Shown here: positions 4,177 to 47,225 of the stretch, one piece after another
How the letters are laid out: every line of letters begins with the position of its first letter
Position numbering within the stretch: the stretch's first letter is position 1
NCBI GenBank assembly: GCA_041287245.1
Contig: JBEULP010000108.1
Span: 1 to 64,000, forward strand
Direction: 5' to 3'
From: Infirmifilum sp.
Lineage (GTDB): Archaea > Thermoproteota > Thermoprotei > Thermofilales > Thermofilaceae
DNA length: 64,000 bases
Program-made: the position numbers and the translations under genes
Notes under the pieces: generated by a model
What the model saw: the letters and a program-made list of their open reading frames with translations, nothing else
The model's database searches: none
What the model was told of the DNA's origin: nothing

Positions 4177-5138
4177 TGGACCTGCTATACCCCCTCGTTT
4201 TTCCAGGAATAGTGTTCACGGCAGCAATGGCTTTCTGGTTTGAGTACATCGAGAGGAAGGTAACTGCCCGCGTTCAACGCCGCGTAGGTCCCCAGTTTAC
4301 CGGACCCGCGGGACTCTTCCAGCCCCTCTATGACTTTCTAAAACTTCTCGGAAAGGAGGAGTTGCTAAACCAGGGGGGCGACAAGGTAGCTCTGCGGGTA
4401 GCACCTGTTCTAGCCGTAACATTTCCGATCTACGGCATGCTGTTCATCCCCATAGTTTCTGAGAAGCCGCCCCTTGGGTTTGATGGTGATCTTCTCCTCA
4501 TAATCCTCCTGTTAGCATTCTCAGCACTATCCACCGTCCTAGTGGGATATGCAGCCCTCAGCCCCTACACGCTAATCGGAGTGGGAAGGTTCGTCACACA
4601 ATACGCGATGTACGAGGCTATATTCATGCTGTGTATCGTCTCAGCAGCCCTACAAGCCTCCACTCTCAACATGCAGGGACTCTTAGCCTACCAGGCGAAG
4701 AACGGGTGGCTAGCCATATACCAGCCCCTGGGCTTTACAGCTGCAACTATCTCACTCCTTGCAAAACTTGAGAAAAGGCCATTCGACCTCCCACACGCTA
4801 AGCAGGAAGTTGTTGCCGGCTGGCTGACAGAGCTCAGCGGCAGGAACCTCGCATACATGAGGCTCTACGAGGACCTAAGCATGACGTGGGGAATCGCGCT
4901 CTTAGCAGCCGTCTATCTCGGCGGACCCATGGGGCCAGGCTTTCCCCTCCTAGGTCCTCTAGCAGGTTTCCTGTGGTTTGGCTTGAAAACACTTCTCATG
5001 AGCGTGCTAATTTCCCTGATAAGTGCCTCTGCAGCAAGGGTTCGCGTATATGGACTCGTTCAAACCTTCTGGGAGATAGTCTTCCCTCTTGTCATCCTTC
5101 AGGTTGGTCTTGCCTGGGTATTAAGGTGGTTGTTATGA
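4173..5138 (+). CDS. Membrane anchor subunit (NuoH/HycD-like)
   Basis: ERKVTARVQRRVGP, QPLYDFLKLLGKE, RPFDLP..KQEVVAGW. Confidence 0.92.
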   Translation: MMDLLYPLVFPGIVFTAAMAFWFEYIERKVTARVQRRVGPQFTGPAGLFQPLYDFLKLLGKEELLNQGGDKVALRVAPVLAVTFPIYGMLFIPIVSEKPPLGFDGDLLLIILLLAFSALSTVLVGYAALSPYTLIGVGRFVTQYAMYEAIFMLCIVSAALQASTLNMQGLLAYQAKNGWLAIYQPLGFTAATISLLAKLEKRPFDLPHAKQEVVAGWLTELSGRNLAYMRLYEDLSMTWGIALLAAVYLGGPMGPGFPLLGPLAGFLWFGLKTLLMSVLISLISASAARVRVYGLVQTFWEIVFPLVILQVGLAWVLRWLL

Positions 5139-5566
5139 TATGGCTTGTCGTAATAGTTGGCGTATCGCTCGTCCTAGCGGCTCTCTTTGCGTCACGCGTG
5201 TCCTTATCTCTCCTACTGATGTCCCTAGGTAGTGCAGTCTTAAGCCTGGCTATAGCAGCCCTAGCCGGCCCTCTAAGCGGCATCCTAGTAGCAGCGCTCT
5301 ACGCTGGTGCACTCATAGCACTAATGGCGGTGTGGCTTGTGCTGGCGGGATCGGAGCAAGCTAGGCGCGACGCAGTCTACTGGGTTGCTATAGCTTTCCT
5401 TTTGCTAGCCCTCCCAGCCGGTCTTTTAATCATCACAATGAGTGGGACGCAACAAGTCATAGTTGTCAACCGGGGGCTATCTACCGAGGACGTCATGCTT
5501 CTCGCGGTTATTCTTATGGTCGCTTCTGGAGGCGTCCCCTATGTACTAGGGGGTGATAAAGAATGA
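5135..5566 (+). CDS. Small membrane subunit (NuoJ-like)
   Basis: About 5 hydrophobic helices with LYAGALIAL motif; ATGA overlap with upstream stop and AAGGTGG RBS support ATG 5135. Confidence 0.7.
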   Translation: MIWLVVIVGVSLVLAALFASRVSLSLLLMSLGSAVLSLAIAALAGPLSGILVAALYAGALIALMAVWLVLAGSEQARRDAVYWVAIAFLLLALPAGLLIITMSGTQQVIVVNRGLSTEDVMLLAVILMVASGGVPYVLGGDKE

Positions 5567-32931: not shown

Positions 32932-32956
32932 CTTTCAATTCATTCTCTTCGGATAC
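32932..32956 (-). CRISPR. Solitary CRISPR repeat GTATCCGAAGAGAATGAATTGAAAG with AT-rich leader-like flank
   Basis: 23/25 identical to the repeats at 46793 and 46857; ends in ATTGAAAG; intergenic; no second repeat at spacer distance. Confidence 0.75.
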
Positions 32957-33283: not shown

Positions 33284-34489
33284 ATGGTGAAAAAGGATTT
33301 TAAGCTACTTGTTAGCTTTCTCCTAGCGCTTACACTAACCCTTACATTCCTACCCATCGTTAAAGCAGAAAACCCCACGATTTCGGTTCAAGACCCCACT
33401 GGGGATGATAAGGGTCCCGGTTTCTACGGGTACCCAACAAACGATGTTTTCAAACCCGGCGTATTCGATATAACTGGATTTAGCGTCACTGTTACTAACA
33501 CTAGCTTAACATTCAAGGTCGACCTGAAGGATCTCGGAGGTAACCCATGGGGAGGGAAAAACGGTTTCTGTCTCCAACAGGTTCACATTTACCTTCACAC
33601 CGACGCCCCTGCCAATGTCCCGGCGCGTGCCAGCGCGATCGGCCTTAACTTGAACTTTGACCCCTCATGGGCCTGGCACTATGCTATTCTAGCCGGTCCT
33701 TGCTGGGAGACTCCTCCGCAGCCGCTTCCCACGGGGCAGTGCGCAGTTCTATACAGGCCTTTCGACGAGGTTGTGCAGGACGATCAACTAAAGGTTAGTG
33801 TTCAAGGAAACTCAATAATTATAACTGTGGACAGGAAGCTCTTCGAGTACGGCGACCCAGCCAACATAAAGAACTGGAGGATCCTTGTTGCAGTGACGAG
33901 CCACGATGGTTTCGGGCCTATGAAGATAAGGGGTGTCGGGCTCAGCAAGGGCGAGTGGAACATCTGGGGTACGGCTACCGCAAATGACACGCAAAAGGTT
34001 CTGATCGCCAAAGCTATTCAGTTCGGGATAGAACCAAGGGTGTTAGATATAGCGGTGTATTCACCAGAGTACCCCAACGGGATCACGGCAGACCAGCAAT
34101 ACGCGTGGCTAAGTAGTATAGACGTCAATGCTAAGCAGCCCGCTACCATCCCGCCCCTCGCAACAGCCCAGCTTAAAGCTCTCGTTCAGGAAAGGGACAG
34201 CTTAAAGTCACAGGTCTCCAACCTTCAGAGCCAGATTCAGAGCCTCCAAGGGCAAATTCAGAGCCTTCAGAGCCAGATTCAAAACCTCCAGTCCCAGAAC
34301 AGCGGCCTACAAAGCCAGGTCAAGTCACTGCAGGATCAGAACTCCAAGCTTTCCAGTGAGCTAGAGGCCCTTAGGGCGTCAACAATGGATACTACGACAG
34401 CCATAGTGTTGGCCCTTGTACTCCTTATCGTGGGAGCTGTAGTTGGGTACTTCCTAGGCTCGAAGAAGAAGCCCAAGACTAGCTCTTAA
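33284..34489 (+). CDS. Surface protein: glucodextranase/DOMON-like carbohydrate-binding domain, coiled-coil stalk, C-terminal TM anchor
   Basis: Signal peptide; DPTGDDKGPG.YGYP...FDI, NPWGG.NGF; LQSQIQS heptads; TM plus KKKPK tail; no catalytic domain recognised. Confidence 0.8.
   Translation: MVKKDFKLLVSFLLALTLTLTFLPIVKAENPTISVQDPTGDDKGPGFYGYPTNDVFKPGVFDITGFSVTVTNTSLTFKVDLKDLGGNPWGGKNGFCLQQVHIYLHTDAPANVPARASAIGLNLNFDPSWAWHYAILAGPCWETPPQPLPTGQCAVLYRPFDEVVQDDQLKVSVQGNSIIITVDRKLFEYGDPANIKNWRILVAVTSHDGFGPMKIRGVGLSKGEWNIWGTATANDTQKVLIAKAIQFGIEPRVLDIAVYSPEYPNGITADQQYAWLSSIDVNAKQPATIPPLATAQLKALVQERDSLKSQVSNLQSQIQSLQGQIQSLQSQIQNLQSQNSGLQSQVKSLQDQNSKLSSELEALRASTMDTTTAIVLALVLLIVGAVVGYFLGSKKKPKTSS
34223..34306 (+). 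repeat. Imperfect 21-bp tandem repeat (about 4 units) encoding coiled-coil heptads
   Basis: cttcagagccagattcagagc / ctccaagggcaaattcagagc / cttcagagccagattcaaaac / ctccagtcccagaacagcggc. Confidence 0.8.
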
Positions 34490-44964: not shown

Positions 44965-45077
44965 ACACCTTATGTAGCATGCTATTTATAAAAAATCTTT
45001 CCAGCCAGGGCTACCGATTACATCCAATTCTTAAGTCATATTTTTTAACTCCCTCCACCATTCAGATAATGACGTGC

Positions 45078-46409
45078 ATGCCCGAAGAGTTTGAACCATA
45101 CCCCGAATTCGTAAAGTGGGACCATATCCCAGACCTCGAAAGAGAGGTTGTAGTTACATTCCGCCTTGTCCCCGGGGAGGGTTTCACCGTGGACGATGCT
45201 GCAGGAGCTGTTGCCGCAGAAAGCAGCGTCGGGACTTGGACTACACTCTACGAGTGGTACGACAAGAGCCGGATTAACAGTTTGAAGGGCAAAGCGTATC
45301 AGAAAAAGCCCCTGCCAGACGGGTCTTTCCTTGTCCGAGTTGCTTACCCGGTAGAGCTTTTCGAGGAAGGGAACATGCCTGCATTTCTAGCATCAGTTGC
45401 TGGCAATATTTTCGGCATGAAACGCGTAAAGTCTCTAAGGGTTGAGGACATATATCTACCTAAGCCATTCCTTGACTTTTTCAAAGGACCATCTAAGGGA
45501 ATACCGGGTATACGCGAAGTTATGCGTATCTCAAGGAGGCCCATAATAGGTACGGTTCCCAAGCCTAAGGTCGGTTACTCGCCTGACGAGGTTGAGAGGC
45601 TCGCCTACGAACTACTTATAGGCGGTATGGATTATGTTAAGGATGACGAGAACATTGCCAGCCCAAGCTACTGCAGGTTTGAGGAGAGGGCGAAGGCTAT
45701 AATGAAGGCGATCGACAGGGCTGAGAGGGAGACGGGCGAGAGAAAAGCCTGGTTTGCAAACATCACGGCAGATGTTAGGGAGATGGAGCGAAGGCTGAAG
45801 CTCGTAGCAGAGTATGGAAATCCATACGTTATGGTCGATGTGGTAATAACTGGATGGTCAGCTCTGACATACATCAGAGATCTCGCCGAGGAGTATGGAC
45901 TAGCTATCCACGGCCACAGAGCCATGCATGCGGCATTCACTCGGAACGAGTATCACGGCATATCAATGTTTACCCTTGCGAAGCTCTTCAGAATTATTGG
46001 AATAGACCAGCTTCACGTTGGTACACCCGAGGTAGGCAAGCTGGAAGCTAAGGCAGTCGACGTTCAGCGCAACGCTCGTGTCCTGAGGGATGCAGCGTAT
46101 GTCCCGGACTCCGAGGACTTCTTCCATCTTAATCAACCCTTCGGCTCCATGAAACCCTCCTTCCCCGTGGCAAGCGGTGGGCTACACCCCGGGACTCTCC
46201 CGGAGGTCATAAGGAAGATGGGGGAAGACATAGTGATACAAGTTGGCGGTGGTGTTGTCGGCCACCCAGACGGCCCTAGAGCTGGTGCTGCAGCCGCGAG
46301 ACAAGCGGTCGAGGCTACGCTTGAGGGAATAGACCTCTCCGAGTACGCAAAAACCCACCACGAGCTTGCACGGGCTATCGAGAAATGGGGCTTTGTAAGG
46401 CCTGCGTGA
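45078..46409 (+). CDS. rbcL: Form III ribulose-1,5-bisphosphate carboxylase
   Basis: AAESSVGTWT, GTVPKPKVG, GGMDYVKDDEN, HGHRAMHAA, GKLE, SGGLHPG, GGGVVGHP. Confidence 0.95.
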   Translation: MPEEFEPYPEFVKWDHIPDLEREVVVTFRLVPGEGFTVDDAAGAVAAESSVGTWTTLYEWYDKSRINSLKGKAYQKKPLPDGSFLVRVAYPVELFEEGNMPAFLASVAGNIFGMKRVKSLRVEDIYLPKPFLDFFKGPSKGIPGIREVMRISRRPIIGTVPKPKVGYSPDEVERLAYELLIGGMDYVKDDENIASPSYCRFEERAKAIMKAIDRAERETGERKAWFANITADVREMERRLKLVAEYGNPYVMVDVVITGWSALTYIRDLAEEYGLAIHGHRAMHAAFTRNEYHGISMFTLAKLFRIIGIDQLHVGTPEVGKLEAKAVDVQRNARVLRDAAYVPDSEDFFHLNQPFGSMKPSFPVASGGLHPGTLPEVIRKMGEDIVIQVGGGVVGHPDGPRAGAAAARQAVEATLEGIDLSEYAKTHHELARAIEKWGFVRPA

Positions 46410-46410
46410 A

Positions 46411-47225
46411 ATGGCTGAGGCTAAGACTCTGATCATAGCCCACGGCGACTGTGACGGGGTTACTTCGGCAGCTCTAGCGCTCTCTATATACGCAGGTAAG
46501 GTCGTGTTCTCTCACCCTGTAGGCATCCTTGGAGACCTGGACGAGTTCTCAGAGGATGCGGACAGGATAGTAATCCTAGATATAGCCTTAGATGAGAGGC
46601 ATTGGAGACAACTTGCGGAAAGACTCGCTGGGTATTGGGAAGCTATATACGTGGATCACCACCCCCCTCCTGTGGGATCGCTAGAGTTCCTGCGGGAGAA
46701 AGGAGTGAAAGTAAACCACGAGGAGAATGCGTGCACAGCAGAGCTCACCTTCAGGTATCTAAAGCCTAGGGCTGACCTTAGCCGCGTAGCTCGTATCAGA
46801 AAAGAATGAATTGAAAGATGGCGTAGTCACCTATGCATCCGTATAGAGCTACGCGGGTATCAGAAAAGAATGAATTGAAAGAGCAGGCTACGGTAATAGA
46901 GGAGGCACGCGAGAAACTCCCAAAGCGCTTAAAGGTTCTGAAGAACATAGCGTTTGTAGAGCACCCAGAGGCCAGCCTGGGGATAATGGCTTTCTATGCC
47001 GCAGTGGTCTCAGGTATGAGGGTGGGAGTTGCTATAGAAGTTAAAGACGGGTGGGCGGTAATGAGCCTAAGGGCTAAGGATCCACGCGTAGACCTCAACA
47101 GCCTGCTACGTAACATCGCGCCTTCATTTAAGGGCCATGGCGGAGGACATAGGAGTGCGGCAGGCGCCAGGGTCCCCCTAGAAAATCTGACAGCCTTTCT
47201 TTCAGCCCTGGATGAAAGCCTTTAG
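46411..47225 (+). pseudogene. DHH/DHHA1 phosphoesterase split by a CRISPR repeat-spacer-repeat, with central deletion
   Basis: N-part 46411-46792 has HGDCDG, ILDI, VDHH, ACTAEL; C-part from 46881 has SLRA and GHGGGHRSAAGAR; the parts are in different frames and separated only by the CRISPR unit. Confidence 0.88.
46793..46881 (+). CRISPR. Mini-array: two identical 25-bp repeats GTATCAGAAAAGAATGAATTGAAAG and one 39-bp spacer
   Basis: Repeats 46793-46817 and 46857-46881; spacer ATGGCGTAGTCACCTATGCATCCGTATAGAGCTACGCGG; ATTGAAAG 3' end typical of archaeal type I-A/III repeats. Confidence 0.9.

Follow-up and report, generated by a model that had tools for sequence, protein, structure and literature searches.

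How did a CRISPR repeat-spacer-repeat unit come to interrupt a chromosomal gene of a hot-spring archaeon, carrying a spacer that matches the segment of the gene it replaces? The unit lies in a DHH-DHHA1 phosphoesterase gene on the forward strand of a 64,000-nt stretch of Infirmifilum sp. DNA (the window, in which all coordinates without a contig name are given). An initial annotation had offered three ways in which it could have arisen: repair of a self-targeting break with a CRISPR array as donor, Cas1-mediated joining of broken chromosome ends to repeats, and misassembly.

A self-derived spacer, a 216-nt deletion and exact repeat-end joins

The 5' half of the gene (46411..46792; 127 codons plus 1 nt), recognised from Pfam PF01368, 17 orthologues and the list of open reading frames, runs directly into a 25-nt CRISPR repeat with no leader upstream (repeat 1, 46793..46817). 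A 39-nt spacer antisense to the gene follows (46818..46856), then an identical 25-nt repeat (repeat 2, 46857..46881) and finally the 3' half of the gene (46882..47225; 2 nt plus 113 codons and the stop), which carries the DHHA1 domain (Pfam PF02272 and alignment). All of these features lie on the forward strand. The initial annotation had described two exact repeats around a 39-nt spacer, with gene sequence abutting the repeat ends on both sides, and both points are confirmed. The insert totals 89 nt and replaces 216 nt of the gene. The reading frame of the 5' half enters repeat 1 and stops at 46809; this two-repeat allele and the single-repeat allele described below are both frameshifted in addition to the deletion.

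The gene starts 1 nt after the stop of a RuBisCO large-subunit gene (44979..46409, forward strand; Pfam PF00016/PF02788), which is probably its operon partner and whose transcript would cross the cassette. This neighbour is common to 3 of the 17 orthologue loci, those of the three closest relatives, and with its neighbours conserved in these relatives the cassette site is a chromosomal gene rather than part of a virus or plasmid. The cassette stands in sense orientation within the gene, and a crRNA made from it would be complementary to the coding strand of the gene. As a folded RNA the unit is unremarkable (z of -2.1; 10 of 200 shuffles were as stable). The protein gave only C-terminal RecJ-like matches, from which no substrate can be assigned, and a sigma-70 promoter scan of the locus was set aside, the host being an archaeon.

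Where does the spacer come from? Its reverse complement is RVALYGCIGDYA, the first 11 nt of which equal the last 11 bases of the 5' half (46782..46792, forward strand), as had been pointed out from the letters alone. These are the surviving, PAM-distal 11 nt of the protospacer, and the remaining 28 nt fall in the deletion. Such a match of 11 nt would arise by chance at a given position with a probability of about 2e-7, and the longest overlap between a spacer and its junction elsewhere, in 37 other array groups of the repeat family, is 6 nt. The suggestion that the spacer continues the frame of the gene as RVALYG stood up to alignment: its reverse complement is in register with the RVA[LVI]YG motif of all 17 orthologues, with 23-28 of 39 nt identical to them, and 17-22 of 28 nt within the deleted part. 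At 39 nt the spacer has the commonest length in the repeat family (87 of 318 spacers). Judged by sequence, the spacer is derived from the host chromosomal gene at the cassette site.

The closest proteins bear the source label Infirmifilum, and the host is accordingly likely to be a crenarchaeon of the Thermofilaceae. The orthologue set came from a search of 40 relatives, in which 17 strong loci were aligned and weaker matches, taken as paralogues, were excluded. Against every one of the 17 the deletion measures 216 nt, a figure that refines the earlier estimate of some tens of codons. It starts inside the protospacer and extends to the PAM side; leaders upstream of the identical repeat fix the orientation, so the PAM would lie on the deleted side. 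This sustains the earlier reading of a self-derived spacer at its own, mostly destroyed target with the PAM side gone. The triplet orthologous to the PAM position is TCN in 6 of the 17 orthologues, CCN in 1 and GTN in 2, all of them from other species.

The full protospacer is absent from the genome by blastn, and the spacer has no second match there (blastn finds only itself, among few assembled spacers); a search of the genome's other arrays, as the initial annotation had advised, returned only the cassette copy. A PAM search with 318 spacers of the repeat family gave no near-full match to the genome (7 mismatches at best), nor did an array of the complete genome G001 have a self match. An intact allele of the same species was sought in three ways, each a weak negative: no metagenome contig matched the spacer pattern, a scan for related loci gave only 6 distant ones, and protein searches of longer relatives reached 65% and 61% identity at best.

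The cassette in three sequencing runs

An assembler could in principle produce such a locus, provided that some strain's array held three adjacent spacers from this gene and that the intact middle of the gene was dropped. Both joins are present in contigs of all three runs of one study. Those of X1 and X3 hold the full unit and span all 1101 nt unbroken, differing from the window by 2 and 5 letters, respectively, and that of X2 has one repeat, and no spacer, between the two gene halves. Neither an intact middle nor a loose end occurs in the contigs of any of the three runs, where matches of about 33 nt were detectable. The run evidence consists of contigs at a depth of about 6, from three runs of near-equal size that may be replicates or the source of the assembly itself. 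They are Logan contigs, which according to the accessible text of PMC12424806 are built from 31-mers seen at least twice, contigs shorter than 150 bp being omitted.

Two details weigh further against the chimera. The single-repeat path requires four 31-mers that the two-repeat path lacks, and because each was seen at least twice the X2 path represents reads and not a collapse of the graph. X3 carries A instead of C at 46776, and since this position, 16 nt away from the left join, is inside the supposed arm spacer, a chimera through that spacer would need the variant in both spacer and gene, the two varying together between runs. In favour of the chimera, spacer-mediated walks seem to occur elsewhere in the assembly (contigs C35 and C17), one X2 contig joins a different repeat to C35 from 3449 onwards (about 140 nt, estimated from the depth table) where X1 is intact, and the evidence comes at that low depth from one study's Logan contigs of 150 bp or more. 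On balance I consider a chimera unlikely; the cassette is probably real DNA, and the original observation is confirmed.

The run contigs vary at 46532, 46673, 46776 and 46973, which gives G41E, V88E and D122E in the 5' half and one silent change; the cassette sits on several flanking haplotypes.

The other irregular contigs deserve a description of their own. On C35 (locus L042), 348 nt of foreign coding sequence (4964-5311) follow the leader-proximal repeat, and an X2 contig departs after 41 nt; as this is one spacer length, the end of C35 is probably a spacer-mediated chimera. The foreign ORF has no relative in viral contigs or in the 40 relatives. C17 (L041, 1-5552) carries short unknown ORFs with a recurring upstream motif and resembles a mobile element. 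Its last gene enters a repeat-spacer-repeat at the contig end, through either a chimera via the spacer or an element-borne mini-array, and this ORF has no relative in viral contigs. At C35 3446-3449, a different repeat of Thermofilaceae type abuts the 5' end of cas7 in X2; CCA stands directly upstream in the genome, and the junction apparently reflects a spacer aimed at a cas gene, with a CCN PAM.

How the gap may have been closed

The machinery for self-targeting is at hand. The genome encodes Cas1, Cas2, Csa1/Cas4, Cas3', Cas5a, Cas7/Csa2, Csa3 and Cas6, together with a Cas3''-like HD protein that scores below the family cut-off; with the latter as Cas3'', the I-A toolkit is complete. Cmr2/Cas10 is encoded as well. 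The cassette repeat is identical to a leader-adjacent repeat (C35:4939-4963) that stands behind an AT-rich leader beside csa3, cas7 and cas5a, and it differs by one base from the repeat of the array behind cas1 on C85. Identical repeats make ordinary arrays in G001. AT-rich leaders were found at C35, C85 and C82, in contrast to the cassette, which lies in a gene without one.

Starting from the demonstrated spacer origin, deletion size and repeat-end joins, I read the locus as the scar of a self-targeting cut, probably closed when Cas1-Cas2 joined the broken end to the first repeat of an array, and would put the probability of this reading at about 0.45. The spacer, newly acquired at the leader, would have guided Cascade-Cas3 to the DHH-DHHA1 gene, where a cut inside the protospacer would have been followed by degradation toward and beyond the PAM. 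The I-A system of T. tenax cleaves inside the R-loop and then degrades 3'-5' (PMC4005679, accessible text), so a deletion from inside the protospacer to the PAM side is the expected one; the accessible text of PMC11127173 has nothing on I-A cut positions. Cas1-Cas2 would then have taken the surviving left end as a prespacer, and half-site integration on the leader side would have connected the gene with repeat 1. The spacer next to that repeat would be the newest of its array and, on this reading, also the one responsible for the cut. Because a lethal self spacer should be the newest and lie behind the first repeat, its place beside its own cut site calls for no coincidence. Both joins fall exactly at repeat ends, which suggests that the process recognised repeat boundaries, and the left join has no microhomology, the continuation of the gene (as read from the spacer) and repeat 1 differing at the first base.

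For the right end, two ways of joining it to the end of repeat 2 are conceivable: it might have annealed to a following spacer acquired from the sequence that starts at 46882, or Cas1 might have attacked a second time, with repeat-repeat recombination afterwards. The target and its PAM would be lost and the cell would survive with a broken gene; later recombination between the repeats would yield the single-repeat allele. A cell that took this route is left without any spacer against a target still present beside its PAM.

Several published observations, as given in the accessible parts of the sources, bear on these steps. Free DNA ends feed spacer uptake (PMC5737086), self-targeting leads to spacer uptake at the target, and Cas1 of Haloferax takes part in break repair (PMC7521656, PMC12281630). 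TCN is one of the I-A PAMs (PMC4390879), and a TCA triplet at 46751..46753 (forward strand), 39 nt inside the left end (the commonest spacer length of the family), could be the PAM of the captured end; the support that it lends is weak, the PAM search having given no near-full match and such a triplet being common by chance. Other results are less favourable. The accessible literature that was searched yielded no example of Cas1 linking the end of a chromosome to a repeat in vivo. The contigs of the three runs contain neither a following spacer that matches the sequence from 46882 nor a junction of leader and repeat with the right gene half, and neither an intact allele nor a donor array was found in the genome or the run contigs. 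As to order, the PAM-distal end of a prespacer integrates first while its PAM end is untrimmed, according to work on Cas4 and in E. coli. A P. furiosus paper, in its accessible part, reports no preference in integration order in vitro.

Against the Cas1-Cas2 route it also counts that recombination through neighbouring spacers alone would end in an identical sequence. In this main rival, three spacers were taken in turn from the gene, the outer two (about 39 nt each) served as homology arms, and the array segment between them replaced the middle of the gene. Exact repeat-end joins would then follow without unusual chemistry, and the TCA lies 39 nt inside the left end, as an arm spacer would have it. 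From what is accessible of the respective papers, homology arms need be no longer than 35-40 bp for gene replacement in the crenarchaeon S. islandicus (PMC6249222), one or two spacers are gained on self-targeting, the target being a hotspot of uptake (PMC7521656), and recombination between spacers and their targets has been reported for phages (Watson 2018 and Varble 2019, cited in PMC8616872). The price is three acquisitions in the correct order and orientation, as well as a left-arm spacer whose target, together with the triplet upstream of it, is still intact; only loss of the donor array, or its location on a sister chromosome, would avoid this. Furthermore, the neighbouring spacers that the initial annotation required for its donor route are absent from the genome's few assembled spacers and from the run contigs, and no array-side contig appeared in the three runs, though matches of about 33 nt would have been detected. 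I regard recombination of this kind as possible but doubtful. Of the three routes first offered, misassembly is disfavoured by the run contigs, the other two are inseparable on the present data, and a hybrid of both fits best.

Could the single-repeat allele of X2 instead be ancestral? A lone repeat would first have plugged the 216-nt deletion, and Cas1 would later have inserted a spacer taken from the intact allele of a related cell. The allele itself is present in X2, lone repeats are scattered through the genome, a single integration turns one repeat into repeat-spacer-repeat, and an X2 contig with CCA upstream suggests that spacers against chromosomal genes occur in the community. However, the site has no leader, and a leader matters for adaptation in the I-A system of S. 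solfataricus (PMC6698737, accessible text). The first step is left unexplained, the new spacer would have to come by chance from the very junction, and spacer loss by repeat recombination is the commoner direction (PMC4390879, likewise in part). Two successive events thus seem very improbable.

Other routes were considered and rejected. Repair templated by a mature crRNA would leave partial repeats, Cas6 products carrying an 8-nt 5' tag (PMC4005679, accessible text), whereas both repeats are whole here. A single crossover through this spacer fails on orientation, the spacer being inverted relative to the gene, and a plain escape deletion by MMEJ accounts neither for the 89-nt insert nor for a left join without microhomology. 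Off-target Cas1 integration duplicates a repeat-like site of the host and removes no host DNA, whereas at this locus it is the array repeat itself, 25 nt long, that is present twice, and the host lost 216 nt.

Known systems, wider meaning and further cases

The nearest known class, judging by the accessible parts of the literature, is escape from self-targeting by deletion of the target. In the I-B system of Haloferax (PMC7521656, PMC12281630; review PMC6990116) such escape resembles the cassette in its self spacer and in a deletion that takes away target and PAM; the cells live on with a non-essential gene disrupted, and Cas1 is implicated in the repair. The outcomes given there are plain deletions, indels and loss of the spacer or of cas genes; gap filling with array DNA is not among them, whereas the gap at the cassette is occupied by 89 nt of array DNA that include the targeting spacer and are joined to the gene exactly at repeat ends. 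The locus, a single case, is likely an autoimmunity escape deletion of this kind, except that its patch is the array unit holding the targeting spacer.

Individual features recur in other systems, as far as the accessible texts describe them. Recombination between phage and CRISPR array joins array and target at spacer boundaries (Watson 2018, Varble 2019, cited in PMC8616872), but its partner is a phage and its outcome transduction, whereas the cassette has a core chromosomal gene as partner; the inverted orientation of the cassette spacer with respect to its target also means that the crossover did not run through this spacer. The attack positions of half-site and full-site integration by Cas1-Cas2 (PMC6698737) match both cassette joins, but there a short prespacer is integrated and an expanded array results, whereas at the cassette a chromosome end would take the place of the prespacer. 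Viruses and plasmids carry mini-arrays and solitary repeat units (Racrs, PMC10651486; Sulfolobus plasmid arrays, PMC4390879) that resemble the cassette in having one or two repeats away from cas genes; the cassette differs in that it is part of the chromosome, lacks a leader and is directed at the very host gene in which it lies.

A likeness to homing elements raises a more speculative possibility. Homing endonucleases sit in, and thereby destroy, the site that is recognised. The same is true of CAST elements with homing spacers, where the site is recognised by a guide (PMC8616872, accessible text). The cassette spacer is complementary to the site that the cassette replaced. In contrast to both kinds of element the cassette encodes no nuclease or transposase and inactivates its gene; at 89 nt, it would rely on the I-A or III effectors of the host. 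Cas1-Cas2 might on this account act on chromosome ends as a joining integrase, which places the most recent self-targeting spacer inside the very site it targets and so creates an 89-nt RNA-guided homing allele, resembling a gene drive. Read-through RNA from the RuBisCO operon would contain two whole repeats, from which Cas6 could release a putative crRNA; type I-A effectors (on DNA) and type III-B effectors (on mRNA) would be directed against intact copies of the gene, and the knockout would be locked in and spread like a natural CRISPR gene drive. I think this improbable, because the X2 allele persists without the spacer and expression is putative. Expression of the unit, if it occurs, would protect the allele against restoration by genes transferred from related cells and could bias inheritance.

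If the preferred scar reading is correct, the locus preserves a natural instance in which a break was mended with the CRISPR array whose spacer had caused it. It would add an escape from autoimmunity that is missing from the routes given in the accessible text of the review (PMC6990116), link spacer integration directly to chromosome repair, and provide a route by which repeats are scattered through archaeal genomes. It would also define a searchable scar, a repeat-bounded unit whose spacer matches the orthologue of its host gene, and it raises a testable question: Is Cas1-Cas2 able, in vivo, to attach the end of a broken chromosome to the leader-proximal repeat?

A search for such scars found no second case in 37 array groups of the repeat family (7 from G001 and 30 from a scan of 115 loci that covered 37 of 64 parts; two pairs of groups overlap and several flanks end at contig ends). 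None was found either in 10 array groups of low-count relatives, for which 13 loci were examined. The 122 viral loci were mostly chance matches or tandem coding repeats, and the two true viral mini-arrays among them have no flank match. One further candidate (G039:C187) is an ordinary array. I found no equivalent in the accessible literature that was searched; the tables of Haloferax deletion junctions could hold rare array insertions.

A few observations on CRISPR elements in this genome and its relatives may be added. There are two stretches of type I-A cas genes (C35 and C85), with two copies of cas3' and two repeat variants, as well as RAMP clusters on C18 (with Cmr2/Cas10 and cas6) and C91; since the assembly is 5% contaminated, these may stem from two strains. 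Within the window, a lone repeat variant with 2 mismatches and no spacer (32932-32956, reverse strand) lies behind a leader-like AT-rich stretch between two sugar-use genes, and an X2 contig appears to carry the same lone repeat. Leader and lone repeat units occur likewise at C82 and C64, and G001 contains several dispersed units of a leader with a short array, one of them a lone repeat. At an array end in another genome (L307, G002:C94, 2876-3126) the same spacer stands at least three times in a row. Finally, the window holds three imperfect 21-nt tandem copies (34222-34290) in the ORF of a probable solute-binding protein.
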